Positions 1 to 63,812 of a stretch of 64,000 nt of DNA are shown piece by piece; within the stretch, counting starts at the first letter, position 1; every line of letters starts with the position of its first letter. The stretch spans positions 22,960 to 86,959 of the forward strand of contig CAZZPK010000003.1 in the NCBI GenBank assembly GCA_964655995.1. The letters run 5' to 3'. Made by a program: the position numbers and the translations under genes. This DNA comes from an uncultured Candidatus Saccharibacteria bacterium (lineage in GTDB: Bacteria > Patescibacteriota > Minisyncoccia > Phycocordibacterales > XYD1-FULL-46-19). Under the pieces are notes generated by a model. That model did not search any database. It was not told the origin of the DNA and saw nothing but the letters and a program-made list of their open reading frames with translations.

Positions 1-98
1 CAAACCTAGTATAATTTGCTATACTGGAAGAAGTGATATAAATGGGCCATGGGGCCTATTTTTAATTGGGACATTGTCAAGACAAGAAAGGAGGGAAA

Positions 99-1812: not shown

Positions 1813-4158
1813 ATGGCTATGCCAAATTTTGAAAAACCATCAAATGATGAAAAGATACCGGAAATGAAGTTGATGTCCAATAAGAAGCCTAAAGAACTTA
1901 AATTGCCTGAGGTTATCGAATTACCCGATCTGCGTACCAAAGAGGAGCGCCTGATGGACAAGCGTATCGAGAGAGTGAGGAAAAAAATGGGTAAGCCGCC
2001 GCTAGGTTTACGCGCTCGTTATCCAATCACACCTGATACTCCTAAAGTAGAAGAGTCTAAGCCAAAACTCCGTCCGTCAGCCAATAAGCCGCGGCCACCA
2101 GTTCGCCGGCGCATACCACCGCCCCACGAGGTTACTGAGTATGATGATCAAGGTGATCCGGTCAGTTATTTAAAATCAATAGTTAAAAAGAAAAGTCGCT
2201 TATCTAAAAAGCCGGTTAAGCCACCGGCAAAATCTCAACCCAAATCCCAAAAAGCAAAAGCTAAAAACCCCAAGACCGTTGAGGAGGTCTATCAACAAAT
2301 GTTGATCGATGCCAAAAGAGGTAAAATTAAACCGCCGGAAGACTTGCCGATAGGCGATCCGTTTGATCTGAAAGTTCCCGCTTTTACCAAACCCAAAGAA
2401 GTGCCATTAACCGAGGAAGAGGAAAAATATTTTGAAACGCCGGAAATTAAATCCGTGGTAGATGAGGACATCAGCGAGCCGGAGCATGGCCCAGCAGAGT
2501 ACGAGCATGATTTGGAAGAGATGGATTATAATGAAGAATCTTCTATAACGCCAGAACATATACCACCGTCTGTTAGTCGACGTCCAACTCAAAAATCTAA
2601 AGTGCCGTCGCATTTGCCGGAGGTTGAAGTGGTCGAGCCTACCGCTCCGGTTTATCAAGAAAAAGACTTAGAAGAGGTTTTGCGTATTGGCCACGATAAT
2701 AGAAGAGACCGCGAGCGTGAAGCACAATTTGTTTTAGAGGCCGAGCGTCGGGCCATTGATCCACAAGGTCTAGATCAACCTATTTTAAAAGGTACTCCGG
2801 AGGGTGATGCTTTTGAAGCCTTGCGCGCAAAAGAAAAAGAATTAGAAACTCCCGAAATGCCACCATCTTTGCCAGAGATTAAGCCGGAGGTTGAGAGAGT
2901 GGATGAGGATTTTGGACGAATGATGGGAGAGAAGCCGGTTGGGGAGGAGGCTAAACAGTCGGCGTGGAAGAAGTTTAAGGAGGCTGGCGCCGATTTGGGT
3001 GGCGCCATCGCCGACGAGATTAAAGAAAAGTTTAAGCCGGTGGGCGAGAGATTGCAGAGCGGCGCCGAGAGGGCGGTCAATGCTTGGCGCTTTGCTCGCG
3101 AGCGGGTCAAGGGTGTGGCCACCTTCGGCTTTTGGGAGGTGCATGAGGCGGAATATTTGCGTTCGGAGGTTAAGGGTGTGTCTAAAGAGGCCAGTCGTAA
3201 TACCAAATTATTACAACGAGAACAAAATTTAACTTACGATGATGAGCATGAGGAAGCTAACCGAATGAATAATCTCTATGACCAGTTGGGTATTGAGGAG
3301 CGTAACGCTTTGCCGCCACAGGAATTGTATCGCAATATGGCCAACTGGGTTTCAGCGGAAAAGATCAGTCAAAATAAAGAAATTGAGCAAGAGTTGGTTG
3401 ACGGTGCTCTAAGTACTTTGCGCGAGCGTTTTGCCAAAAAAGTCGATTTTCGTGGCCGGCCGATTTTAACTGAAGAGAAATTATTTAATATTGAGTCCGA
3501 GTTGCGCCGAACCGCTTCCGTTGCTCGTTATACTCAAATTGACCGCGATATTATTAATTACAATAAATTAATCCGCAAAAATCTCGATCCGGAGTGGTAT
3601 CGGCGCTATGTGGCCGGCGGCATCGAGTTTGCATTGGCGAGTGTCGCTTTGGGAGCCGTTGCTTATACAAGCAGCGCCAAGATCGGCGCATGGTGGGGCG
3701 GCCGTATGGCCAAAAAAGCGCTCGGTACTGGTGTTAAACAGGCGGCTGAGCGAGTAATGCACGCCGATGCGCCAACCGGCACCGGCAGTAGTTACGTCCA
3801 AGATCTTATTAAAAAATTCCTTACTCCCACAGCCGCCGGCGGGGTGGAGTTGGAGGATTTGCCCATGCCCGACGAGGAGCTAATAGATAAAGGCGACAAT
3901 ATTTGGAATATTACCAAAGATTATTTGTCTAACCATGGCATTAAAAATCCGACCAATGCTCAAATTTTGGAGGCGGCCAAAGAGGTCGCCAAAGAGAACA
4001 ATATCGCGGTTAAAGAGTGGGGCATTAGCGGCGAGATCTCTGATAGGCAGTTACGTCCCGGTAAAGTCTTGTCGCTTAAGAGTTTAGCCGCCAAGGCGGC
4101 GCTCTTGGCCGGCAAAAAAGCAGTCAAAGCCGCGGTTAATATTGCAATGGAATCTTAA
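1813..4158 (+). CDS. large hypothetical protein, Lys/Pro-rich low-complexity N-terminal third, one predicted TM segment near residue 600
   Basis: 781-aa ORF; strongly biased N-terminal composition (KPK/PPV runs); hydrophobic stretch GGIEFALASVALGAVAYTSSAKIGAWWGG; no recognisable catalytic motif. Confidence 0.55.
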   Translation: MAMPNFEKPSNDEKIPEMKLMSNKKPKELKLPEVIELPDLRTKEERLMDKRIERVRKKMGKPPLGLRARYPITPDTPKVEESKPKLRPSANKPRPPVRRRIPPPHEVTEYDDQGDPVSYLKSIVKKKSRLSKKPVKPPAKSQPKSQKAKAKNPKTVEEVYQQMLIDAKRGKIKPPEDLPIGDPFDLKVPAFTKPKEVPLTEEEEKYFETPEIKSVVDEDISEPEHGPAEYEHDLEEMDYNEESSITPEHIPPSVSRRPTQKSKVPSHLPEVEVVEPTAPVYQEKDLEEVLRIGHDNRRDREREAQFVLEAERRAIDPQGLDQPILKGTPEGDAFEALRAKEKELETPEMPPSLPEIKPEVERVDEDFGRMMGEKPVGEEAKQSAWKKFKEAGADLGGAIADEIKEKFKPVGERLQSGAERAVNAWRFARERVKGVATFGFWEVHEAEYLRSEVKGVSKEASRNTKLLQREQNLTYDDEHEEANRMNNLYDQLGIEERNALPPQELYRNMANWVSAEKISQNKEIEQELVDGALSTLRERFAKKVDFRGRPILTEEKLFNIESELRRTASVARYTQIDRDIINYNKLIRKNLDPEWYRRYVAGGIEFALASVALGAVAYTSSAKIGAWWGGRMAKKALGTGVKQAAERVMHADAPTGTGSSYVQDLIKKFLTPTAAGGVELEDLPMPDEELIDKGDNIWNITKDYLSNHGIKNPTNAQILEAAKEVAKENNIAVKEWGISGEISDRQLRPGKVLSLKSLAAKAALLAGKKAVKAAVNIAMES

Positions 4159-4508: not shown

Positions 4509-5355
4509 GCGATTTAAGCCAGACAATTTGGTGATTACTTTTAAACCAAGTGCGTTGCCGCTTGGCAAAGCGCCAAATATCCTGCTCTAACTCTTTTACC
4601 AGTTCTTGTTTACTGATTTTGCCCTGGAGATGGCGGGCCACCGAGCGATACTCTAAGCCCAGCTCCCCAAGCCTTTTCCAGCTCAAGCCTTGCTGGTGCA
4701 ATTTTTTAACTTCGGCCACCAGCCCCTGCTTGAGGCGCGCCGTCAGCCGCCTGTTTATTTTTTGTTTTAAAATCTGATCGGGTAAATCAAGGCCGATAAA
4801 CAGCGGCTCATACTCGGGTTTGGCTTTAAGCTTAGGCACTCGGCCCAAAGCGCGCGCAATCTCAATGGCTCGGATCAGGCGGCGGGGATTATGCCGGTCG
4901 ATAGTTTTAGCCCGGGCGGGGTCAAGGGCGCGCAGTTTTTGGTACAGTTGGTCGGTTGGTAATTTGGCCAGGATTGCTCGCAATTTGTCATTGGGCGGCA
5001 CCTCGGGCCAAACGAGCCCGCCAACCAAAGCGTCGATATAAAAGCCGGTGCCGCCGACGATAATCGGCGTTTTGTTCTTCTTGATTATTTTAGCAATCGC
5101 TTTCTCGCCTAATTTTTTAAATTGATTTGCCGTAAAGCGCTTTTTAGGCGAGGCGACGTCCAAGAGATAGTGGGGGACGCCCTCCATTTCTTTCTTGCTG
5201 ATTTTTCCACTGCCGATGTTTAGGCCGCGGTAAACTTGGCGCGAGTCGGCCGAGATCACTTCGCCACCTATTTTTTTAGCCAGTTTTACCGCCAAGGCGC
5301 TTTTGCCGGTGGCGGTTGGGCCCACTATAACGATGATTTTTGGTTTAGTCTCCAC
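4465..5355 (-). CDS. miaA: tRNA dimethylallyltransferase
   Basis: P-loop GPTATGKS, the DSRQVYRGLNIGSGK motif and the overall MiaA layout. Confidence 0.85.
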   Translation of the reverse strand: METKPKIIVIVGPTATGKSALAVKLAKKIGGEVISADSRQVYRGLNIGSGKISKKEMEGVPHYLLDVASPKKRFTANQFKKLGEKAIAKIIKKNKTPIIVGGTGFYIDALVGGLVWPEVPPNDKLRAILAKLPTDQLYQKLRALDPARAKTIDRHNPRRLIRAIEIARALGRVPKLKAKPEYEPLFIGLDLPDQILKQKINRRLTARLKQGLVAEVKKLHQQGLSWKRLGELGLEYRSVARHLQGKISKQELVKELEQDIWRFAKRQRTWFKSNHQIVWLKSPSLSTCLKSCANHF

Positions 5356-5378
5356 CCTGCCACCGTAGCGTAAATAAA

Positions 5379-5410
5379 GAGCGCCGGCAAGGTGCAGCGC
5401 ACCTTGCCGG
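5379..5410 (-). terminator. intrinsic terminator (perfect 13-bp stem) downstream of the 5419..5757 transcript
   Basis: ccggcaaggtgcgctgcaccttgccgg followed on the minus strand by CGCUCUUUAUUU. Confidence 0.5.
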
Positions 5411-5418
5411 CTTAAATT

Positions 5419-5757
5419 CTAAAACCAAATTTCGGTATTGTCCTTATAAAGGCATACTTGCACTTCCTGTACTACTGGCCCGTCAACGGCGAGCAGCACG
5501 AGCCATCTCGGTTTGGCAAAGCCCAGACTATGCAGTCCGTCAGCCAATTGGCCGCGCTCCTCGTTCGTCATCAGTCGGCATTGTCCCGGCAAAATAAATT
5601 GGACCACCGACTGTCGGGATAATTTAAGCAAACAGCGCCGGAGCCTGGGGTTTCTGATTAAGGAATGAGCCCCGCGGATTTTTGACTTCCGTCGCCCTCT
5701 TTTTCTTTGTTGCTGGTCGTCTGTCGCCCAAAAGGGCACTACCGCATCTGCCGCCAT
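5419..5757 (-). CDS. hypothetical Arg-rich protein (it could instead be a non-coding transcript)
   Basis: 112-aa ORF; a perfect hairpin ccggcaaggtgc-gc-gcaccttgccgg (5379..5410) and a U-tract on the minus strand lie immediately downstream, supporting a transcript that ends here. Confidence 0.3.
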   Translation of the reverse strand: MAADAVVPFWATDDQQQRKRGRRKSKIRGAHSLIRNPRLRRCLLKLSRQSVVQFILPGQCRLMTNEERGQLADGLHSLGFAKPRWLVLLAVDGPVVQEVQVCLYKDNTEIWF

Positions 5758-34376: not shown

Positions 34377-34420
34377 GCCCGGTTTTTCTTTTGCTTAAAA
34401 ATATTGTAAAATGCGGGACC

Positions 34421-36442
34421 ATGTCGTTGTTTACGCTTAAGAGTGAGTTTGCGCCGGCGGGCGATCAACCTAAGGCAATTGCCGCTTTAGCGAGCGGGCT
34501 TAAAAAAGGCGAGCGTCACCAAACTCTGCTCGGTGTCACCGGTAGCGGTAAAACTTTTACCGTGGCTAATGTCATCGCCGGGGGCGATCAGCCGGTGCTG
34601 GTGATCGCGCACAATAAGACGTTGGCGGCGCAATTGGCGCAGGAGTACAAATCATTTTTCCCCGACGCGGCGGTGCATTACTTTGTCTCATACTATGACT
34701 ACTATCAACCCGAGGCATATCTGCCCACCACCGACACTTATATTGAAAAGGATGCCCAGATTAACAAAGAGATTGATCGTTTGCGCCACGCCAGTACTCA
34801 GTCGCTGCTTACCCGCCGCGATGTGATCGTTGTCGCCTCCGTTTCTTGTATTTACGGCTTAGGCAGTCCGGCGGAGTACCAGGAGAGTCATCTTAAATTG
34901 GCGGCGGGAGACAAACTGGCGCGCCAAGAGCTCATGACCAAATTGGTCTCGATTTATTACGAGCGCACTAATGCCGACTTAAAGCCGGGCACCTTCCGCG
35001 CTATTGGCAGTGTGGTGGAGGTAATGCCGCCGTCGGAGACGGAGGTGTATGCTATTCATCTCGGACGAGAGGGTATTGAGGAGATAGTCCAACTGGATGC
35101 CGTCTCGCGGGTAGAGCTTGATCGGCCACGGAGTTTTTTTCTTTTCCCGGCTAAGCATTTTATTACCAGCAAGGCGGAGCGGGAGCGGGCGATCGCTTCA
35201 ATCAAGGCCGAACTCGAAGCTCATTTAAAGTTGCTTAATTCCCGCGGTCAGATCTTAGAGGCGGAGCGGCTTAAGCGCCGCACTAATTACGACTTGGCAA
35301 TGATTGCCGAGGTGGGCTATTGCACCGGGATCGAGAATTACTCGCGCCACTTGTCCGGCCGGCCGGCCGGTGAGCCGCCTGCCACCTTACTTGACTACTT
35401 TCCGCATCATGCCGATGGGAGCCCGGACTTTTTAACGGTAATCGACGAGTCGCATGTCACGATACCGCAATTGGGCGGGATGTATGCCGGCGATGAGAGC
35501 CGCAAAAAGACATTGGTCGAGCACGGCTTCCGTCTACCCTCGGCGCTCGACAACCGTCCACTCAAATTTTACGAGTTTGAGGAGCGAGTGGGGCAGGTTA
35601 TTTACACCAGTGCCACGCCCGGTGAGTATGAGCTGGCCCACTCGGGCAAACCGGTGGAGCAGATTATCCGTCCCACCGGTCTCGTGGACCCGGAGCTTAC
35701 GGTACGGGGCGTAATGGCTCGGGGCGATTATGCCGGACAAGTCAAAGACTTTATTAACGAGGCGATAGCCGAGATTGGCCGTGGCCACCGTGTGATCGCC
35801 ACCACCCTGACTAAAAAAATGGCTGAGGACTTAAGCGAGTTTTTGAAAGGGCAGGGGATCAAGGCCGAGTACTTGCACAGTGAGATCAAAACTATTGAGC
35901 GAATTAAAATTTTAACCGAGTTCCGCAAAGGCTCGGCGGCGGGCGGCTTTGATTGCTTGGTCGGAGTCAACTTGTTGCGTGAGGGCTTGGACTTGCCCGA
36001 GGTGTCGCTGATCGGTATTTTGGATGCGGACAAAGAGGGCTTTTTGCGTTCGGAGGTGTCGCTTATCCAAACGATTGGTCGCGCCGCGCGTAATGTGGAG
36101 GGCCGGGTTATTTTATATGCGGATGCCTCGACTGGGTCGCTCGAGCGGGCGATAGGCGAAACTAATCGCCGCCGGGCAAAGCAGCTCGCTTACAATAAAG
36201 AGCATGGTATTACCCCTAAAACGATTTACAAAAAAATCCACGACATCACCGAGAGCTTGGAGGCCCAAAGGACTAAAACCCTGCGCACTCTGCTTGAGCT
36301 TGATACCAAAACGGCTGGCGGTAATCTCAAAAAACTAATTAAGCAAAAAGAGAAGGAGATGTCCCAAGCGGTCAAAGAGCTCGATTTTGAAACCGCCGCC
36401 CTCATCCGCGATGAGCTAAAAGAACTCGCTAAACTACAATAA
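34421..36442 (+). CDS. uvrB: excinuclease ABC subunit B
   Basis: GVTGSGKTFT Walker A, helicase motifs, C-terminal UVR domain; the ATG at 34421 is preferred over the TTG at 34391. Confidence 0.9.
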   Translation: MSLFTLKSEFAPAGDQPKAIAALASGLKKGERHQTLLGVTGSGKTFTVANVIAGGDQPVLVIAHNKTLAAQLAQEYKSFFPDAAVHYFVSYYDYYQPEAYLPTTDTYIEKDAQINKEIDRLRHASTQSLLTRRDVIVVASVSCIYGLGSPAEYQESHLKLAAGDKLARQELMTKLVSIYYERTNADLKPGTFRAIGSVVEVMPPSETEVYAIHLGREGIEEIVQLDAVSRVELDRPRSFFLFPAKHFITSKAERERAIASIKAELEAHLKLLNSRGQILEAERLKRRTNYDLAMIAEVGYCTGIENYSRHLSGRPAGEPPATLLDYFPHHADGSPDFLTVIDESHVTIPQLGGMYAGDESRKKTLVEHGFRLPSALDNRPLKFYEFEERVGQVIYTSATPGEYELAHSGKPVEQIIRPTGLVDPELTVRGVMARGDYAGQVKDFINEAIAEIGRGHRVIATTLTKKMAEDLSEFLKGQGIKAEYLHSEIKTIERIKILTEFRKGSAAGGFDCLVGVNLLREGLDLPEVSLIGILDADKEGFLRSEVSLIQTIGRAARNVEGRVILYADASTGSLERAIGETNRRRAKQLAYNKEHGITPKTIYKKIHDITESLEAQRTKTLRTLLELDTKTAGGNLKKLIKQKEKEMSQAVKELDFETAALIRDELKELAKLQ

Positions 36443-36464
36443 TTATCATAGCTATTAATTATAT

Positions 36465-36500
36465 TCCTAACTTGAGACGGTCGTCTGAGATTAGGAAAGA
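36465..36500 (+). repeat. direct repeat copy 1 carrying the AGACGGTCGTC motif
   Basis: tgagACGGTCGTCtgagATTAGGAAAGAG, compared with 37058..37090 aaACGGTCGTCaaaaGTTAGGAAAGAG. Confidence 0.5.
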
Positions 36501-36501
36501 G

Positions 36502-37107
36502 CTAAGAAAGATTAAATATTTTCTTTAACCAGCTATCATTTTCTAAATAAGATACTTCCATATACAACACCTCTTTGCCAATATGATAGTTAGCCTTTAA
36601 TAGGGCTACTACTTCTTGGCAATCGTATGGATAAACCCAAACACTATTTTGGAGCCTTATTAAGCCTAAGTGCTGAAACCAAGCTCGCAATTTGTTTCTA
36701 GTGGATCGTTTCCATTCCTTAATATCAAAAATAATAATTCGATATTTACCATCCCAGCGTTTTGGTTTATTTATGGTTAATTTTTCTAACTCATATTCTT
36801 TTAACTTAATTTTGCCACTTTTGGTCAATCGGACAACTTTCTGTCTTTTACTATTATTTTCTATTTTAACTAAACCCTGTTTCTCTAGGCGGCCAACCAC
36901 TTGATTAATGTAATTCCTTTTCTTTGATTCTTGTTTTGGTAGAAAACGGAGTAATTTTAGGCAATTTGGTGCCACTACTGCTAAAGCAATAATCCCAGTT
37001 AGGCCAATAACACTAAGAATTATTTGTTGATAGTCTGAATTTGGTGATCTCATACCTATTCCTAAGTATAAACGGTCGTCAAAAGTTAGGAAAGAGGTGT
37101 TTGACAA
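36502..37107 (-). CDS. membrane-anchored PaaX-like wHTH regulator with a Cas2/VapD-fold middle domain, lacking the PaaX C-terminal domain
   Basis: N-terminal TM, wHTH (QVVGRLEKQGLVK...VVRLTKSGKIKL), then RWDGKYRIIIFDIKEWKRSTRNKLRAWFQHLGLIRLQNSVWVYP. This resembles the E. coli PaaX segment PPWDGKWLLLLSEGLD...LIWQGFG and the Cas2 consensus (YDI...R.Q.SVFE). AT-rich. Confidence 0.5.
   Translation of the reverse strand: MSNTSFLTFDDRLYLGIGMRSPNSDYQQIILSVIGLTGIIALAVVAPNCLKLLRFLPKQESKKRNYINQVVGRLEKQGLVKIENNSKRQKVVRLTKSGKIKLKEYELEKLTINKPKRWDGKYRIIIFDIKEWKRSTRNKLRAWFQHLGLIRLQNSVWVYPYDCQEVVALLKANYHIGKEVLYMEVSYLENDSWLKKIFNLS
37058..37090 (+). repeat. direct repeat copy 2 carrying the ACGGTCGTC motif
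   Basis: See copy 1; together they bracket the PaaX-like gene. Confidence 0.5.
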
Positions 37108-37162
37108 AAATTTAATAAAAAGGTTTACTTAAATTGGAAAATAAACAGGAGGGTCTCTAAAT

Positions 37163-37426
37163 ATGAGATTTACAGCTTTACTGATCGGGCGCTACTGGGT
37201 CGGGTTAATAAAGGAGCAGTCCCATCTAGTTGTTATTATCTTGGTACTTGGGTATCTAACCGTTGGTATTGCTCGGGTGCTCGAGTATGGTTGGGGCTCA
37301 ATTGGCGCCGGCCTCTTGGTTTATCTGATCTTTGTTCCTTTACTTTCTTCGTCTTGGAATTGGTTTTTAAGAAGGCTGATCCTTTATTGTCAAAAAAGAT
37401 CAGATGTTTTGGGCAATCAACAATAA
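37163..37426 (+). CDS. small membrane protein
   Basis: Ribosome-binding site aggagggtc; two hydrophobic helices. Confidence 0.4.
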   Translation: MRFTALLIGRYWVGLIKEQSHLVVIILVLGYLTVGIARVLEYGWGSIGAGLLVYLIFVPLLSSSWNWFLRRLILYCQKRSDVLGNQQ

Positions 37427-37437
37427 GGAGAAAAAAA

Positions 37438-37653
37438 ATGACGTTTTTGGCAATGATGTCATCGGGCTTGTGCTTGATGGCGATTTACCTCTCGATCTAT
37501 GTGCCGCAAAGCGGCGGGCTGATCGGGCTGATTTTGACCATTGCGATCCTAAACATTATGGCCTTGTGGGCATCACTGAAGCTGGGCATCGATTATCCTG
37601 GTCGGCCCCTCAATCTGACTGAGGTGATTGGCCAACGGTTTTGGGTGATGTAG
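37438..37653 (+). CDS. small membrane protein
   Basis: Ribosome-binding site aaggagaaaaaaa; MTFLAMMSSGLCLMAIYLSIYV... The track ORF 37291..37653 starts further upstream in the same frame. Confidence 0.4.
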   Translation: MTFLAMMSSGLCLMAIYLSIYVPQSGGLIGLILTIAILNIMALWASLKLGIDYPGRPLNLTEVIGQRFWVM

Positions 37654-37881
37654 CAAATCAAGCTCCGAGACGAGTCCACTGTCTTGGTGCTATCGCAGGG
37701 GCAAAAAATTTTATGCCTCTTGGTCCCTGGCGATTACGGCAATATGCCGGATTTCCCACTGGCCTCACTGGTAGAGGTAGTGGATCCGGGGCATAATCAA
37801 AAGCCTCAGATCAAGCAGGTCCACATAGACCTGCTCACCTAAAAGAAACTGGTTTTCTTGCGGATGGCCCAGCCATCCGCT

Positions 37882-38457
37882 TTATTTTTTGGTGACTAAC
37901 GACTGGGCATTGCCTTGGAGGCCGGTGGCGTCGCCCTCGAGACCGGAGACATTGCCCGAGAGGCCTGAGACATCCCCGGTAATATTGGTCACAATACCAG
38001 CAATGCGGCTAACATCGCCTTTAATATTAGTGACCGTGCCGGAGATATTGGTGGCATCGCCCGTGAGATCATCGACATTACCCACCAGGTCGCTGACATT
38101 GCCTTTTAGCTTGCTGGCATCGCCGCGGATATTGCTGACCGAGCCGCGGATAAAACTGACATTGCCCAAGAGGCCCGAGATATCGCCGGAGATATTGCTC
38201 ACATCGCCACGGAGAGGGGTTACGTCACCTTTAATGTTGCTAACATCGCCTTGGATTTTGGAGACATCGCCCAAAATGCCGGTAATATTGCCGCGGATGG
38301 CGCTGGCATCGCCGGTAATTTTATGGAGCGAGACGTCGCCGTAAATACCGTGGACGCTGCCGCGCAAATTGGCAAAATCGCCCCAGACATTGGGGTGGAG
38401 ATTGGTAACATTTTTGGTGTTAAGCTGGGTTTTGTTGGTGCTTGGTTGTAAGGTCAT
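37882..38457 (-). CDS. 7-residue tandem-repeat protein (about 22 consecutive GD[VAI]S.I. heptads)
   Basis: GDVSNIKGDVTPLRGDVSNISGDISGLLGNVSFIRGSVSNIRGDASKLKGNVSDLVGNV...; the DNA has a 21-nt periodicity across about 37930..38400. Confidence 0.55.
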   Translation of the reverse strand: MTLQPSTNKTQLNTKNVTNLHPNVWGDFANLRGSVHGIYGDVSLHKITGDASAIRGNITGILGDVSKIQGDVSNIKGDVTPLRGDVSNISGDISGLLGNVSFIRGSVSNIRGDASKLKGNVSDLVGNVDDLTGDATNISGTVTNIKGDVSRIAGIVTNITGDVSGLSGNVSGLEGDATGLQGNAQSLVTKK

Positions 38458-42224: not shown

Positions 42225-42251
42225 AATGTCGTAAAATAAGGTTTTTTAAAT

Positions 42252-42287
42252 TATACCAAGTAGCCGCGATCGCGGTCAGATGGTATA
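42252..42287. repeat. REP-like palindrome R1 (TATACCA...CCGCGATCGCGG...TGGTATA)
   Basis: tataccaagtagCCGCGATCGCGGtcagatggtata; the inner 12 bp are a perfect palindrome. Confidence 0.6.
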
Positions 42288-42385
42288 GTTGACAATATTG
42301 GTAAGGGTATGCTATAATGGTAGGTAGAGTTGTTTGAAAGTAAATAACACGGAACCATAATCCCCAAAGGGAGAGGAGATTGAAG

Positions 42386-42811
42386 ATGAGTTGGATTTTG
42401 GCGGTGGCACTTTGCTTTATACTTTGGAGTACCTACGCAATCCCGGGCAACTTAGCCGAGAAGACGCACGGGGTCTCGGTCAATATGCTTTTTGAGACCT
42501 TGGCGTTTATTGGGGTGACGCTTCTCCTCGGTAGTAAGATTATCGAGGGGTTACCCAAAGTTACTTTGAGCTCAGCCGCTCTCGCCTCAATGATGGGGGC
42601 CGGATCGGCGCTCGGATTTTACTTTTTTCTCACCGCGCTTAGTTTGGCGCCGGGAACAAAAGGTATTGTCCTGGTCGTTTTGATCGCCGGGGTCACCTTC
42701 CCGGTGCAGAGTGCTCTCTTCAGCTTTTTTGGAGAGGCGCTGAGCACCCAGCAGTGGGTAGCGATCATTGGCATGGGGGCGTCCCTCGTCCTCTATAACT
42801 GGAAGTTTTAA
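42386..42811 (+). CDS. small four-TM membrane protein (DMT/EamA-half-like)
   Basis: Ribosome-binding site gggagaggag; four hydrophobic helices; bracketed by R1 and R2. Confidence 0.45.
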   Translation: MSWILAVALCFILWSTYAIPGNLAEKTHGVSVNMLFETLAFIGVTLLLGSKIIEGLPKVTLSSAALASMMGAGSALGFYFFLTALSLAPGTKGIVLVVLIAGVTFPVQSALFSFFGEALSTQQWVAIIGMGASLVLYNWKF

Positions 42812-42886: not shown

Positions 42887-42888
42887 AT

Positions 42889-42924
42889 TATACCAAGTAG
42901 CCGCGATCGCGGGGAGATGGTATA
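42889..42924. repeat. REP-like palindrome R2
   Basis: tataccaagtagccgcgatcgcggggagatggtata; its 5' 34 nt, including the ttttttaaat lead-in, are identical to R1. Confidence 0.6.
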
Positions 42925-43072
42925 GTTTTGTTTTTTATTAATTCCGGTTAATCTTGATTGTTCCACTTGCTCACGATCGTATAAAAGTGGAATAATCAGT
43001 AAGGAGAGGTGGTTGATTTTTGTGGTTTTTTGTTTAATAATGTCTTTAGATTAACCTAGAAGGAGACAAGAG

Positions 43073-43336
43073 ATGTCAAAAATAAATGAGAAGAGACTCA
43101 AACTTTTAACACCCCGTGAATTTGTTTTTATGCGACAGTTGAAAAGAGGTTTAATAACACCTCTTTCTGATGATGTTGTCGCTTGTAAATTAGCTTCTCT
43201 GGGCCTCATAACTTTGCGGACGGGAAAATTAACGGACATAGGAGCACACATTCTGTGGGAAGAAGAACTTGAGCAAAGGCCGTTACTTAAGCTAATTTAC
43301 TTAATTTACGGCCCACTTTTTTGCAGGGTCTCTTGA
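43073..43336 (+). CDS. hypothetical small protein (AT-rich)
   Basis: Strong ribosome-binding site gaaggagacaagag ATG; its 3' end overlaps the fmt stop convergently. Confidence 0.35.
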   Translation: MSKINEKRLKLLTPREFVFMRQLKRGLITPLSDDVVACKLASLGLITLRTGKLTDIGAHILWEEELEQRPLLKLIYLIYGPLFCRVS

Positions 43337-49364: not shown

Positions 49365-51326
49365 ATGAGACGCTTTCTTTTTTTACTTAGTCTGTTTATT
49401 TTGATTTTTGGCGTGGCGGCCGATAGTTGGGCAATTACCGACTCGATCAATGTCAGTGGGACGGTAACTACCGAGGATGATGGTGGTGGTAGTGATCCGG
49501 TTTACGGCTGTACCGATCCGGCCGCGACTAACTATAATCCTGACGCTACTGCTAGTGATGGTAGTTGCCAGTATCCCACTTTAGTGCCGACGGTTATGAA
49601 TTTTGAAGCGGTTTACGACGAAGACAATGATGAGGTCGATTTAACATGGGTTAATCCTAGTTTTGCCGAATTTGCCGCGGTGCGCATTGTCCGCTCTACC
49701 ACTTTTTTCCCTAACTCGCCCAATGAGGGGACTTTAATTTATGATGGACCGGGAGAAGAAGCGGTGGATGATAATGTGAGTCTGGGCAGCACTTATTATT
49801 ACACCGCTTTTGTCCGTTCCACCGCTAACGAGTATTCAGCCGGGGCGGTGGCGCAGGTCACTATCCCAACTGAGCCGCCGTGCGAGGGCGATGAGTGCGA
49901 TCCAGCCGATCCGTTTGAGGATTTGCCCGAGGGAGGCGGCGGCGGATTTGAAATCGGCGGATTTATCTTTTTCCAACCTGGAGAGGAGCCGCAATATCTG
50001 CGGGCCGGCGGCGAGACCATTTTGCTCCGCGCCGACAAAACTACCACTATTTATTTGCCGTACGATCAGGCGCCGGAGGTGTTAAAAACCATCGGCGTTA
50101 CGGTGATGAGTCCAATTAATCCTAAAAGCAGCTTTTCTTTCCTGTTGCGATTGACTCCAGATAAAAAAGGTTATGCCGCGACGATCGCGCCGCTCGGTGC
50201 GAGCGGCAAGTATCCGGTGGCTATCTATGTGATCAACTATCAAAATCAGAGCCTCAAGCGTTTGACCGGCAATTTGGAGGTCCAGGGTGGTGCGGCTATG
50301 GTTGGACTGGTGCCGGCGACAATTATTGAGCAAACCGTGGCTCCATTAGTGGTGGGGACCGGTCTACTCATCGGCTTAGGCCAGGCCTTGGTGCCGCTGG
50401 CCGCGGTTACTTCCTGGTATGATATTTACTTGATTATTTTGCGGGCTCTGGGCGCGCTCTCGGGCTACTTTGGTCTGCGTAAAAAATACAAGCCGTGGGG
50501 AACGGTTTATGATGCGGTGACCAAACAGCCGATTGATCCGGCTTATGTCACTATCGAGGCGAATGGCAAAGAGATCTCTAGCGCCATTACCGACATTGAG
50601 GGGCGGTATGGCTTTTTCCTCCCACCTGGCACCTATACTCTTAAGGCCGGCAAGACTCATTATCAATTCCCCTCCGCTAAGTTGGCGGGGCGTTCGGCCG
50701 ACGAGCTCTATAATAATCTCTATTTTGGCGAGCCGTTTGAGACCAAGCCGGATGAGGTGATTGACCGCAACATACCCCTCGATCCAATCGGTTTTGACTG
50801 GAATGAGTTTGTTAAAAGCCAGTCCGCCACCTTGGTGGCCAATAGCAAAAAGGAGTTAAGTCGAGCTCGGATTCATAAAAGCATTTACGCCGTGGGCTTG
50901 CTTACCGCCGTGGGCAGTGCTGTATATACCCCCAGTTGGCTCTCATTTAGTTTATTTGGGGCCTATGTTTTGCTGGCGATTTTTGAGCGAGTTTGGGGGA
51001 TTAGGCGCCATGTGCGGACTATTACTTGGAGCGATACTAAATTGCCGCTACCGTTTGCTATTGTTCGCGTCTCGATCCCGGATTTGAATCAGGAGGTCAA
51101 GCATGTGGTGGCCGATCAGCTGGGGCGCTTTTACGTCTTAGTGCGACCGGGGGTTTACAGTTTGTCGGTGGAGGAGAAGCAAGCCGACGGCTCTTACAAA
51201 AAAGTGTATCAGTCGCCGCCAACCAACTTACCCCGCGGTACTTGGGACAGCGACCTTAAACTCAATCGTAATGTCTTACCACCCGAGCCAGCGTCAGTTA
51301 TTTCTACTCCTAACTTGACTAAATAG
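49365..51326 (+). CDS. large surface/membrane protein (signal peptide, FN3-like domain, two carboxypeptidase-regulatory-like beta-sandwich domains, several TM helices)
   Basis: FN3-like segment (DLTWVNPSFAEFAAVRIVRS...YYYTAFVRS) and CarbopepD_reg-like segments (GTVYDAVTKQPIDPAYVTIEANGKE...GRYGFFLPPGTYTL; GRFYVLVRPGVYSL). Confidence 0.55.
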   Translation: MRRFLFLLSLFILIFGVAADSWAITDSINVSGTVTTEDDGGGSDPVYGCTDPAATNYNPDATASDGSCQYPTLVPTVMNFEAVYDEDNDEVDLTWVNPSFAEFAAVRIVRSTTFFPNSPNEGTLIYDGPGEEAVDDNVSLGSTYYYTAFVRSTANEYSAGAVAQVTIPTEPPCEGDECDPADPFEDLPEGGGGGFEIGGFIFFQPGEEPQYLRAGGETILLRADKTTTIYLPYDQAPEVLKTIGVTVMSPINPKSSFSFLLRLTPDKKGYAATIAPLGASGKYPVAIYVINYQNQSLKRLTGNLEVQGGAAMVGLVPATIIEQTVAPLVVGTGLLIGLGQALVPLAAVTSWYDIYLIILRALGALSGYFGLRKKYKPWGTVYDAVTKQPIDPAYVTIEANGKEISSAITDIEGRYGFFLPPGTYTLKAGKTHYQFPSAKLAGRSADELYNNLYFGEPFETKPDEVIDRNIPLDPIGFDWNEFVKSQSATLVANSKKELSRARIHKSIYAVGLLTAVGSAVYTPSWLSFSLFGAYVLLAIFERVWGIRRHVRTITWSDTKLPLPFAIVRVSIPDLNQEVKHVVADQLGRFYVLVRPGVYSLSVEEKQADGSYKKVYQSPPTNLPRGTWDSDLKLNRNVLPPEPASVISTPNLTK

Positions 51327-51343
51327 ATATAGGGGTGTATAAT
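51315..51343 (+). promoter_or_regulatory. perfect-consensus sigma70 promoter (TTGACT, 17-nt spacer, TGn TATAAT)
   Basis: ttgact-aaatagatataggggtg-tataat. Confidence 0.6.
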
Positions 51344-51367
51344 TAAAGGTAGAAGGGAGGTGAAGAT

Positions 51368-51601
51368 ATGCTTGGTTGGGAAATAGTTTTTGAAGATAGC
51401 GCGAAAAAAACAGAAAGGATGAAGGTTCCTGGCGGTTGGTTGGTTTTAACTAGCACATTTTTACCACCGACTGATCTTCATAAGCCTGTTCCTCCAATTG
51501 CTCAGACTTTTCTGCCTGATCCGAAACACAATTGGCAGAGCAAATACTGGAGAGAATATGGCGAACCACCACCGTTAGATAACGAACCTGTGCAGGACTA
51601 A
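51368..51601 (+). CDS. small hypothetical protein (cassette 1)
   Basis: 77 aa with ribosome-binding site gggagg; its own promoter and terminator. Confidence 0.4.
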   Translation: MLGWEIVFEDSAKKTERMKVPGGWLVLTSTFLPPTDLHKPVPPIAQTFLPDPKHNWQSKYWREYGEPPPLDNEPVQD

Positions 51602-51603
51602 TT

Positions 51604-51658
51604 CCCGCCCGGAGACAACGACCCAAATCGTCTGTCACGAGGCGGGTTTGTTGTTTTT
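51604..51658 (+). terminator. conserved intrinsic terminator module, copy A
   Basis: cccgcccggagacaacgacccaaatcgtctgtcacgaggcggg followed by tttgttgttttt. Confidence 0.6.
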
Positions 51659-51736
51659 GCCTAAAATGTAAACTAATTAGACGGTCGTCAAACTATTTCA
51701 CATTCTCAATCGTAAACGGTCGTGAACAGTTGGGAT

Positions 51737-51765
51737 GTTTAGAATTTGACAAGATAACTTTATGG
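51737..51765 (+). promoter_or_regulatory. perfect-consensus sigma70 promoter (TTGACA, 17-nt spacer, TGn TATAAT)
   Basis: ttgaca-agataactttatgggtg-tataat. Confidence 0.6.
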
Positions 51766-51806
51766 GTGTATAATCAAAGTTAGAAGTGTTAACAGGAGGA
51801 GCGGAC

Positions 51807-52046
51807 ATGAAGAAAATTGTCTTGTTTTTTGTGGTAGTAATTCTGGTAATGGTGTTTTACACTGGTATTGAAAAGGAGCCAGCTTACCAGTATCACATTA
51901 CCACCTGGGATGGTCGTGAGGCTATCGGTAAATTGAATCGCGATCAAACCTATACATTTTTTCGATTTTATAGGGTGGGAGAAGTGGTTTACATCGACCA
52001 GGAGATTGCCACTTTTCCAGCTGCAGAAGCGGCCAAACTCCATTGA
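51807..52046 (+). CDS. small single-TM protein (cassette 2)
   Basis: Ribosome-binding site aggagg; MKKIVLFFVVVILVMVFYTG... Confidence 0.4.
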   Translation: MKKIVLFFVVVILVMVFYTGIEKEPAYQYHITTWDGREAIGKLNRDQTYTFFRFYRVGEVVYIDQEIATFPAAEAAKLH

Positions 52047-52106
52047 CCCGCCAACGGACAACGACCCGAATCGTCTGTCGCGAGGCGGGTTTGTTGTTTT
52101 TATTTT
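52047..52106 (+). terminator. conserved intrinsic terminator module, copy B
   Basis: cccgccaacggacaacgacccgaatcgtctgtcgcgaggcgggtttgttgtttttatttttc; about 90% identical to copy A. Confidence 0.6.
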
Positions 52107-52161
52107 TCTATATTTTAGTCAAGTTGCCCCCAAGGCCATAATCGGCCATAATGGCGGGGAA

Positions 52162-62580: not shown

Positions 62581-62636
62581 TATTTGTTTAAAAACTATAC
62601 CATCTAGCCGCGATCGCTGGCAGATGGAATAATTTA
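62581..62636. repeat. REP-like palindrome R3 plus shared flank (55-bp unit)
   Basis: aaactataccatctagccgcgatcgctggcagatggaataatttaaaacaataaa, identical to 63693..63747. Confidence 0.65.
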
Positions 62637-62660: not shown

Positions 62661-63620
62661 CTAGCTGGTGACAAAATCGCTCGAAAGAATTGGTAGCCAT
62701 TCATGTTCGGCGACGATAAGATCAACCACTCTTTTTGTCTCATATTCAGAAGCCTCATTAAAGTCATAAAGAACAATGACTTCATATGAGAATTCCTCAG
62801 GTGGATCAGTAAACAGGAGGCCGAACAAGACAACACCATCACGCATTTTTTCATTCAGACTTAGGTCAGGATACTCAAAATGGGCAATCTCAAGATGGTG
62901 CCAAAGAGTATCTATGCAGCTCCTGTGGGAACCAAATCCCCAAGACATTCGCCATTCTAAGAGGCTGGTATGAATAGCAAACCCCTTAACACTATTACCT
63001 AGAGAGACAGCATATCCATTGCTCTCTAGTAATTTGTCAGCCAATCTCTTCTTTTGTATTTTAGACAGGGAGTTTATTTTTTCCAGTTGTTGTTGGTACT
63101 CTTTATTTACTATAGTTGCAGGTGGTGATAATTTAGCTAAGTTGCCCGATCGCCAGCTTGCCTGCAAGGACCTTGCCCATTCTTGTAGCTCAGGATCATG
63201 ATGCCTCAGACTCAACGCGCTTCCTGTTTTTTGAGGACATAAATCATCTTCATGTCGGTCTAAAGGTTTGACGAAAATGAGCGGTACTCCTGGCAAAAGT
63301 TCTTTTTGGAGATAATTCACGCCCTTCTCAAACTCAAGTTCGTTTGTTGCCATTATTGCACCAATGAGTCGGCCGCAGTCTCTGGCTTCTTTGATTCGAT
63401 TGAGTTTTCTGACTAACCCGCGGTTTCCTCTGGTGTCTTTCAGATCAAACCAGGATTCAACAATTAGGACATCAAGCCCCAATCGTTGCCTTAATACTAG
63501 GGCGAGTATATCCCTGTCTGTATTATTGGTGTAAGTAAAATCATTAGAACGCTCGAGTATCAAAATCAGCGGTCTATTATCCATCTGCCCTCCTCCATTT
63601 TGTTTTTGAGGTGCTTCCAA
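62661..63620 (-). CDS. hypothetical protein (AT-rich, bracketed by the 55-bp perfect direct repeats)
   Basis: 319-aa ORF, about 40% GC; no confident domain assignment. Confidence 0.45.
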   Translation of the reverse strand: MEAPQKQNGGGQMDNRPLILILERSNDFTYTNNTDRDILALVLRQRLGLDVLIVESWFDLKDTRGNRGLVRKLNRIKEARDCGRLIGAIMATNELEFEKGVNYLQKELLPGVPLIFVKPLDRHEDDLCPQKTGSALSLRHHDPELQEWARSLQASWRSGNLAKLSPPATIVNKEYQQQLEKINSLSKIQKKRLADKLLESNGYAVSLGNSVKGFAIHTSLLEWRMSWGFGSHRSCIDTLWHHLEIAHFEYPDLSLNEKMRDGVVLFGLLFTDPPEEFSYEVIVLYDFNEASEYETKRVVDLIVAEHEWLPILSSDFVTS

Positions 63621-63692: not shown

Positions 63693-63747
63693 AAACTATA
63701 CCATCTAGCCGCGATCGCTGGCAGATGGAATAATTTAAAACAATAAA
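63693..63747. repeat. REP-like palindrome R4 plus shared flank (55-bp unit)
   Basis: Identical to R3. Confidence 0.65.
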
Positions 63748-63756
63748 TATTTAATA

Positions 63757-63808
63757 AAACAACAAACCCGCCTCGTAACAGACGATTTGGGTCGTTGTCG
63801 CTGGCGGG
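63757..63808 (-). terminator. conserved intrinsic terminator module, copy C (reverse orientation)
   Basis: The reverse complement ...cccgccagcgacaacgacccaaatcgtctgttacgaggcgggtttgttgtt matches copies A and B; it lies immediately 3' of the partial minus-strand CDS. Confidence 0.55.
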
Positions 63809-63812
63809 TGGT

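Follow-up and report, generated by a model that had tools for sequence, protein, structure and literature searches.

A PaaX-like protein with a Cas2-like domain and the two palindromes that bracket its gene: a candidate module of Paceibacterota

The DNA analyzed was a stretch of 64,000 nucleotides (nt), here called the window, from contig CAZZPK010000003.1 of an uncultured Candidatus Saccharibacteria bacterium. In it a short gene, here called gene X, lies beside uvrB, and the same repeat stands just before its start and at its stop codon. Why is a gene whose product resembles both the repressor PaaX and the Cas2 protein of CRISPR systems (named after short palindromic repeats that are clustered and regularly interspaced) enclosed in this way? 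Based on the evidence given below, the locus was interpreted, with a probability of roughly 0.55, as one copy of a module of Paceibacterota in which a minimal PaaX-like DNA-binding protein is combined with two private predicted sites hugging its gene. As far as could be found, this protein and two-palindrome module is widespread in Paceibacterota and undescribed; no paper linking PaaX-like or Cas2-like proteins of Candidate Phyla Radiation (CPR) bacteria to flanking palindromes turned up in the searchable literature. The gene and its two palindromes are located as follows.

36502 to 37053, minus strand: gene X, 183 amino acids (open reading frame list, exact database protein P0001, Pfam, TIGR01573, AlphaFold2 model, Foldseek)
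37057 to 37096, no strand: upstream palindrome, type A; arms at 37059-37065 (TTCCTAA) and 37086-37092 (TTAGGAA), centre ACGGTCGT at 37072-37079
36462 to 36501, no strand: downstream palindrome, type A; arms at 36464-36470 and 36491-36497, centre ACGGTCGT at 36477-36484

Gene X and uvrB (34391-36442) are convergent, and on the other side X is divergent from a membrane open reading frame (ORF) of 87 amino acids at 37163-37426. Its stop codon occupies 36502-36504, and that of uvrB lies at 36442. Two starts are available on the minus strand, TTG at 37107, giving the product of 201 amino acids assumed in the initial annotation, and ATG at 37053, giving 183. The ATG is most likely the start used, since database protein P0001 is an exact match to the 183-residue product, the alignment of 44 diverse homologues begins at this position, and the 201-residue form runs through the upstream palindrome. 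The region had been noted as AT-rich, and its guanine plus cytosine (GC) content was indeed 33% over 36450-37350 versus about 52% in the surroundings.

As modelled, the product of gene X begins with a winged helix (residues 5-76), which a linker helix at 78-90 connects to a ferredoxin domain of Cas2-like type (104-167). It was matched by the Pfam family PF20803 ("PaaX central Cas2-like domain", PaaX_M) with an E value of 1.2e-17 and 64.2 bits against a cutoff of 24, and this family was present in 120 of the 120 homologues listed. The N-terminus gave only weak Pfam matches (HTH_27, PadR and DUF6293_C) and did not match the PaaX N-terminal model; the PaaX_C domain was absent by Pfam, the chain ending 16 residues past the Cas2-like domain. 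Cas2 profiles were matched by TIGR01573 (cas2, NCBIfam; 29.6 bits against a cutoff of 24.5, spanning only 38 residues) and by PADLOC (E 1e-7), while the Pfam CRISPR_Cas2 score of 19.3 bits fell under the cutoff of 23.8. Because Cas2 profiles (TIGR01573, PADLOC) and PaaX_M both match, members of the family are named either "Cas2" or "PaaX" by the sources, the Prokaryotic Genome Annotation Pipeline using "CRISPR-associated endonuclease Cas2". Identity as a defence system was rejected, PADLOC having returned Cas2 profile matches only.

An AlphaFold2 model built on 45 homologues, with a predicted local distance difference test score (pLDDT) of 86.4, gave for the N-terminus three helices (5-19, 24-34 and 42-58) and three strands (21-23, 62-66 and 72-76) arranged as helix-strand-helix-helix-strand-strand, which is the order of a canonical winged helix, followed by the linker helix and a beta-alpha-beta-beta-alpha-beta domain. 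In a Foldseek search of the PDB the top match was E. coli PaaX (8a39, E 2e-6, all 183 columns), and further matches were Cas2 chains (probability 1.0) and the PaaX-like structures 3kfw and 3l09. The model and the Foldseek matches thus show similarity to both folds, and together with PF20803 and TIGR01573 they bear out the architecture originally proposed, that of a PaaX-like protein with a Cas2 fold that has no PaaX C-terminal domain. Across 45 diverse members the invariant residues included D110 of "FDI", the Asp at the Cas2 catalytic position, and Q135, S137, V138 and W139 of "LQNSVW", whereas the PaaX-like protein Rv0674 lacks this Asp in the alignment. The invariant or near-invariant columns contained no His.

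The N-terminus of X is also strongly hydrophobic. Over residues 11-29 the 19-residue Kyte-Doolittle mean was 2.53, which passes the classical hydropathy threshold, and the threshold was likewise passed in 42 of 45 relatives. This stretch had been taken for a membrane anchor; the hydrophobic segment is real, and its reading as a transmembrane helix is doubtful. In the AlphaFold2 model it makes up helices 1 and 2 of the winged helix together with strand 1, at a lower pLDDT of 60-80, and it holds the near-invariant A28-P29-N30 and the mostly conserved Q33. A separate transmembrane segment is doubted because its removal would leave X without a helix-turn-helix, and Foldseek aligned the whole 183-residue chain to PaaX, a cytoplasmic protein. 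A membrane anchor in X is therefore regarded as unproven and, judging from the model, somewhat unlikely.

Each of the two type-A copies was found to be an inverted repeat of the form TTCCTAA-N6-ACGGTCGT-N6-TTAGGAA, 40 nt in length, and the two are 80% identical to each other. The edge of the upstream palindrome lies 3 nt from the ATG of gene X; the downstream palindrome touches the stop codon and lies 20 nt past the stop of the convergent uvrB. The string ACGGTCGTC-N5-TTAGGAAAGAG occurred exactly twice in the 64 kb (36477-36501 and 37072-37096) and in none of 100 shuffles, and TTCCTAA-N16-24-TTAGGAA was found in the same two places only, with 0.01 expected; a chance origin was ruled out on these grounds. 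The initial annotation had described a direct repeat of roughly 30 bp carrying a shared motif on both sides of the gene, with an inverted repeat AGACG/CGTCT. The repeat is where it had been placed and its presence is beyond chance, its length being 40 nt at 80% identity and its symmetry extending from the centre that had been recognized to the whole copy.

Is the bracket peculiar to this genome? Relatives of X were sought in species-representative genomes, their loci being labelled L001 and so on, and 84 loci were examined for palindromes. In all, 560 relatives were confirmed, every one from metagenome-assembled genomes of Paceibacterota/Parcubacteria type, some of which carry two or three X paralogues; the complete Paceibacterota genome CP011215 has at least two. 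A profile search of 1.84 billion representatives returned 645 clusters (50% identity) at E below 1e-30. A phage origin was discarded, as a single weak relative was found among 2.9 million viral contigs. The nearest homologues, 62-68% identical, have the same bracket with related arms, and in L001, L002 and L006 a CGACCG- or CGGTCG-centred palindrome stands just ahead of the start and just past the stop. In a first pass over the 84 loci, palindromes with these two centres were found upstream in 56 and downstream in 58, the remaining loci mostly having CGATCG, CGGCCG or CTATAG centres. When all centre types were counted, palindromes were present on both sides in 59 loci, on one side in 20 and on neither in 5, so that at least one flanks the X homologue in 79 of the 84 related Paceibacterota loci. 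Strict sites numbered 127 in 1.07 Mb, compared with 0-1 in shuffled sequence, and 110 of the 127 lay within 300 nt of an X-family gene. Forty-nine pairs of same-type palindromes enclose the X gene alone, with a spacing of 583-897 bp (median 655 bp), and the outer arm of the downstream site begins a median of 16 nt past the X stop codon. The GC content of X-family genes tracks that of the host (r 0.83; median deficit 6 points), which points to long residence.

This conservation bears on the suggestion, made when the repeats were first noticed, that they are target-site duplications or att-type recombination remnants of a foreign cassette inserted downstream of uvrB. The module is missing from the closest relative found (L089; UvrB 88% identical), in which DNA homology ends at 36444 and resumes at 37918; in the comparison proposed at the outset, uvrB is thus followed there by a different ORF of 62 amino acids, lying between the breakpoints, in place of X and the 87-residue ORF. 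The GC deficit in the window, -18.5 points, is the largest of 81 loci, and the small genes downstream of uvrB differ among relatives. Because the closest relative lacks X and the deficit is so extreme, X is probably an inserted accessory module in this genome. The repeats themselves, on the other hand, do not appear to be insertion scars: the bracket is a property of the X family, kept in 79 of 84 loci, and the locus-specific arms stay alike on all four half-sites while spacer and flanks drift, which indicates selection. Furthermore, the ends of the indel and the palindromes do not coincide, the right boundary in L089 lying about 820 nt beyond the palindrome; X orthologues are found at this position next to uvrB in L001 and L006-8 as well, with related arms in L001 and L006 and a protein identity of 62-67%, near that of UvrB (73%); and no recombinase is nearby. 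The origin of the repeats as remnants of insertion was consequently judged the least probable of the explanations considered.

Analogies with integron attC sites and with Xer/dif modules were also dropped. In those systems the outer arms are conserved and the centre is variable, which is the reverse of the conserved centre and variable arms seen here, and no tyrosine recombinase is nearby.

The spot downstream of uvrB (36445-37917) is variable in content. Here it holds gene X and the 87-residue ORF; the corresponding stretch has an ORF of 62 amino acids in L089 (stretch 3669-3997), one of 96 amino acids in L090 (stretch 5092-5566), and one of 115 amino acids plus X in L001. The neighbouring ORF 37882-38457 (minus strand) encodes 191 amino acids, nearly all of them in GDVSxIxG-like repeats; its Pfam matches are weak and of coiled-coil type, and it is conserved in L089.

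The form in which the palindromes are recognized was addressed through their anatomy, computed over 138 sites. Between loci only the centre is conserved, as R-C-G-R | Y-C-G-Y, with 58 sites having CGGTCG, 48 CGACCG, 24 CGATCG and 3 CGGCCG; the non-palindromic central AC/GT is over-represented (106 of 138 sites). The outer arms vary among loci and paralogues and match within a locus. The palindromic fraction, for which the background is 0.34, changed with distance from the centre as follows.

Positions 2-4: 0.91-1.0
Positions 5-10: 0.57-0.72
Positions 11-17: 0.86-0.96

The identity between upstream and downstream copies followed the same positional profile, and the half-site can therefore be divided into an invariant centre, an outer arm that varies and, between them, a spacer under loose constraint.

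Such sites could in principle act as hairpins of RNA or single-stranded DNA, for example as a bidirectional terminator or as mRNA-stabilizing stem-loops at both transcript ends, with CGRYCG as the loop. Many family members do have perfect stems of 17-19 bp, a conserved centre on a variable stem resembles a protein-recognized hairpin loop, sites are located at gene 3' ends, and T-tracts are slightly enriched after downstream sites (26% versus 15%). Most sites, however, have no T-tract, and pairing is lowest at positions 5-10, directly beside the supposed loop. Where half-sites are unequal, single uncompensated deviations outnumber compensated ones both in the arms (56 versus 18) and in the spacer (95 versus 17). 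The central AC/GT points either way along the gene about equally often (about 50:50), so that the loop would be randomly oriented with respect to transcription. The two copies in the window fold weakly as single strands (-5.7 kcal/mol), the upstream one with an open interior of 16 nt, and no Rfam family was found in 36300-37300 at E up to 1. Based on the symmetry of arms and centre with a looser spacer, the uncompensated deviations, the random orientation of the centre, the weak folding and the lack of an Rfam match, the palindromes are better described as predicted duplex DNA sites read by a symmetric dimer of X; a selected hairpin does not fit this pattern and is considered very unlikely. 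The alternation of AC and GT had at one stage been taken as a flip/flop sign of hairpin replication, an idea that was dropped after CGATCG and CGGCCG centres were found, the centre being simply CGRYCG.

If the sites are read as duplex DNA, is X the reader? X paralogues within one genome have their own arms, matched on both flanks. Arm similarity correlated with identity of the recognition helix when the Cas2-like domain was controlled for (partial Mantel r 0.19, p 0.001); the correlation was weaker for the wing and for helix 2, and there was none for helix 1. This covariation is supportive of cognate reading rather than proof of it, because shared ancestry of gene and sites contributes to the signal. 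The geometry of the sites, 7-nt arms 20 nt apart (TTCCTAA-N20-TTAGGAA), may be compared with the PaaX operator, TGATTC-N27-GAATCA, through which PaaX represses its own promoter (PMC9493321).

The position of the upstream palindrome is consistent with such a role. Two promoter-like sequences are found in or beside it.

37065 to 37070, minus strand: -10-like hexamer TATACT, in the gene-proximal half of the upstream palindrome, +5 from its centre
37101 to 37129, plus strand: promoter-like TTGACA-N17-TTTACT, facing the 87-residue ORF 37163-37426; seen by eye, not reported by the scan

The hexamer TATACT is presumably part of the X promoter. Among 69 upstream and 69 downstream sites, TAnnnT at +5/+6 was present in 29% of the former and 8% of the latter, and -10-like hexamers were also enriched just beyond the proximal arm at upstream sites and not at downstream ones. 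The upstream palindrome is thus probably an autoregulatory operator of X. Paired operators had been offered in the initial annotation as the alternative to recombination remnants, and this reading gains support from the PaaX-operator-like form of the palindromes and from the -10-like hexamer at an offset enriched across the family. The divergent ORF 37163-37426 may be co-regulated with X, because 5 nt separate the start of the -35 of its promoter-like sequence from the upstream palindrome's edge.

Based on these features the following sequence of events is proposed. X would dimerize through its Cas2-like domain, as PaaX and Cas2 do, and the dimer would bind duplex DNA, its two winged helices reading the outer arms 11-17 bp either side of the centre and the invariant part of the protein presumably sitting over the invariant centre RCGRYCGY. 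Since the upstream site overlaps the putative core promoter, binding there should repress transcription of X and, judging from position, may also affect the divergent ORF. The downstream site, in what is the least certain step, might cooperate with the upstream one through a loop of about 600 bp, or block transcription arriving from uvrB; looping, a roadblock or a boundary are the roles inferred for it.

Sites built like those of X but with different arms are also present at other genes, and nine sites in all were counted across the whole window with 0.34 expected. The refuting scenario named at the outset, in which the repeat would be a general promoter element ahead of many genes with no relation to one another, is not what was seen. 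Sites away from gene X are listed here.

42250 to 42289, no strand: type-B palindrome TATACCA...GCGATCGC...TGGTATA, centre 42269; its edge overlaps the promoter of ORF 42380-42811
42887 to 42926, no strand: second type-B copy, centre 42906; past a terminator-like hairpin of ORF 42380-42811
62594 to 62633, no strand: type-B-like palindrome, centre 62613; 55 nt identical to the copy at 63695-63734
63695 to 63734, no strand: type-B-like palindrome, centre 63714; partner of 62594-62633
42957 to 42996, no strand: a third arm type, TTGTTCCACTT...ACGATCGT...AAGTGGAATAA, single, centre 42976; upstream of ORF 43073-43336
51703 to 51736, no strand: degenerate site TTCTCAA-N6-ACGGTCGT-N6-TTGGGAT, intergenic; a second ACGGTCGT core lies at 51681

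The first type-B pair brackets a gene other than X, a membrane ORF of 143 amino acids (42380-42811) without a Pfam match, served by a perfect TTGACA-N18-TATAAT promoter at 42289-42318 which the palindrome edge overlaps, a placement that also speaks for an operator. The second pair brackets ORF 62661-63620 (minus strand, 319 amino acids, no Pfam match). An hmmsearch of all ORFs of the window found no second X paralogue that could read the type-B sites, and since the window has only one X gene, their reader must be encoded outside it. X paralogues with ATACCA-type arms are seen in L034 and L055. The site at 51703-51736, which precedes a promoter-like TTGACA-N17-TATAAT of ORF 51808-52046, is a weak candidate and may be due to chance.

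Some neighbouring features were noted in passing. ORF 43073-43336 encodes 87 amino acids of helix-turn-helix-like appearance, has no Pfam match and overlaps the 3' end of fmt. The region 51300-52110 consists of tandem small-gene units, with ORFs 51368-51601 and 51808-52046 having near-identical promoter-like GGGTGTATAAT and terminator-like CCCGCC...GGCGGGTTTGTTGTTTTT sequences; the ACGGTCGT cores at 51681 and 51716 fall between the units, and a third, inverted copy of the terminator-like sequence is found near 63768-63812.

Several observations weigh against the interpretation of X as an autoregulator with two operators. The consensus scan called no minus-strand promoter for X, the -35 is poor, and the hydrophobic N-terminus could make the protein membrane-bound. 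The downstream site is conserved as strongly as the upstream one, although a simple autorepressor has no need of a site at its 3' end. Nor can the downstream site be an operator of the following gene, a candidate that was ruled out as this gene is convergent in half of the loci (28 of 56). Lastly, a scan of metagenomes for TTCCTWA-type arms gave 100 stretches, in which 43 sites lay beside X genes and 35 were solo with ample surroundings. Solo sites were distributed as 38 co-directional, 18 convergent and 6 divergent, compared with 65, 17 and 18% of gap length; they are over-represented in convergent gaps and under-represented in divergent ones, and in co-directional gaps they lie closer to the upstream stop than to the downstream start. 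One palindrome of 46 nt, GTGCATTTCCTAAAAACCCGCGGCCGCGGGTTTTTAGGAAATGCAC, was identical at five places of one metagenome (Ga0265292; copies in L097, L120, L151 and L163, with a variant in L159), the flanks being unrelated, and no X gene was present in those stretches. This bias among gaps and the five-place copies fit elements of the repetitive extragenic palindromic (REP) kind better than a classical regulon.

Because palindrome copies are both dispersed and bracketing, a role like that of REPs and their REP-associated tyrosine transposases (RAYTs) was kept open. The palindromes would then be dispersed and ultimately mobile elements which X would copy or maintain with its Cas2-like domain acting as a nuclease, and the two copies flanking X would be the counterpart of the REPs that flank RAYT genes. 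REPs prefer gene 3' ends and convergent gaps just as the solo copies here do, and a RAYT gene has REPs of its own on its flanks (PMC3733652). In agreement with this, there is one protein per palindrome class with several classes per genome, the X gene is always flanked by its own class, and in the window type-B copies bracket two unrelated genes, one pair being identical over 55 nt. Short arrays occur in L086 (five sites), L028 (four) and L055 (three), and D110 and QNSVW are invariant in the 45 members although Rv0674 lacks the Asp. Against it, X has no HUH or Tyr transposase motifs, and transposases of the Cas2 fold are not known. Copy numbers are modest: the loci, about 1 Mb in total, contain 17 solo sites and the window 5-7, type A being limited there to the two flanking copies in 64 kb and type B to four. 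The tracking of host GC content (r 0.83) argues for long residence, the five-copy metagenome class is linked to no X gene, and presence/absence polymorphism of a solo palindrome was not found. The REP/RAYT-like explanation is therefore possible although on the whole unlikely; it shares the binding step with the operator explanation, and the two differ in what X does afterwards.

Concerning the arrays, those beside an X gene (L086, 7300-8650; L028, 5400-6410) consist of same-type palindromes separated by unique ORF-free spacers of 110-210 nt, a CRISPR-like layout with spacers that are far too long. A ksgA/rsmA-like coding region contains a palindrome built in this way in two related contigs, L121 (near 1022) and L130 (near 6911).

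The genomes of CPR bacteria (Patescibacteria) are small, and their gene regulation and repeated DNA are almost unstudied. The X family is large and routinely mislabelled "Cas2" or "PaaX", and recognizing it would mean that "orphan Cas2" is called in error less often where a lineage is held to be without CRISPR. Each of its members having a private 40-bp site on either side of its gene that is easy to recognize, the family offers a natural set of candidate protein-DNA specificity pairs for the PaaX-type winged helix, and a lead on the role of the Cas2-like domain of PaaX-type proteins at DNA. The module is at the same time a candidate REP/RAYT-like system on a different fold. In its strongest form, that the Cas2-fold family is the RAYT of a new REP-like class, each paralogue specifically recognizing, maintaining and perhaps, by way of its Cas2-like nuclease domain, spreading its own palindromes of CRISPR-repeat size outside CRISPR loci, and these palindromes punctuating the ends of genes and bracketing genes in CPR bacteria, the proposal is improbable, and more doubtful than the general REP/RAYT-like explanation. 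If true, it would represent a second, independent invention of the REP/RAYT lifestyle, and a living Cas2 relative coupled to palindromic repeats would bear on the origin of Cas2 and of CRISPR repeats.

Four known systems may be compared with the X locus. With Cas2 (TIGR01573, PF09827) X has in common the ferredoxin-like fold and the conserved Asp ending strand 1, and it is likewise tied to palindromic repeats of CRISPR-repeat length. Unlike Cas2 it carries a fused winged helix, and its repeats are two in number, about 600-650 bp from each other with the gene between them, and do not form an array whose spacers measure 30-40 nt; neither cas1 nor a CRISPR array was found near X in the window or at the loci of three Pfam-annotated relatives (L001, L002, L006-8), the only repeats at the gene being the two palindromes.

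With REP/RAYT systems the X locus shares a protein gene that is present in single copy and enclosed by palindromes of a class of its own, as well as the existence of several classes per genome; palindromes away from the gene lie mainly in co-directional and convergent gaps (PMC3733652). RAYTs, which are homologous to HUH/Tyr transposases, act on single-stranded hairpins tagged with a terminal GTAG, whereas X is a winged helix-turn-helix protein with a Cas2-like domain; it showed no homology to HUH/Tyr (IS200-like) transposases, its Pfam, NCBIfam and PADLOC matches being to PaaX_M and Cas2 only. In the X sites, furthermore, the conserved element is central (CGRYCG), the constraint points to duplex binding, and copy numbers appear lower.

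The centromere-binding proteins of plasmids provide an analogy for the bracket itself, as in pB171, where parC1 and parC2 place sites on both sides of the par operon. There, as proposed for X, a small dimeric autoregulator has an upstream site and a second cognate site downstream of the operon. X differs in having no ParA-type partner, in being chromosomal and present as several paralogues, and in its fold.

The closest resemblance is to PaaX, the phenylacetyl-CoA-responsive repressor of E. coli and Pseudomonas, in which a winged helix, as modelled for X, precedes a Cas2-like middle domain. It is the best whole-chain structural match (8a39; relatives 3l09 and 3kfw), PaaX_M is common to both, and its operator likewise consists of two short, far-apart inverted half-sites (PMC9493321). 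No paa genes were found near X, the neighbours in the window and in Pfam-annotated relatives being tgt, uvrB, uvrA, uvrC, recR, dnaB or small ORFs. X lacks the PaaX_C effector domain and a match to the Pfam PaaX N-terminal model, and its N-terminal helices are very hydrophobic. It keeps the Cas2-type FDI and QNSVW motifs, which the PaaX-like Rv0674 does not have. In contrast to those of PaaX, the sites of X contain a third, invariant central element and bracket the gene on both sides.

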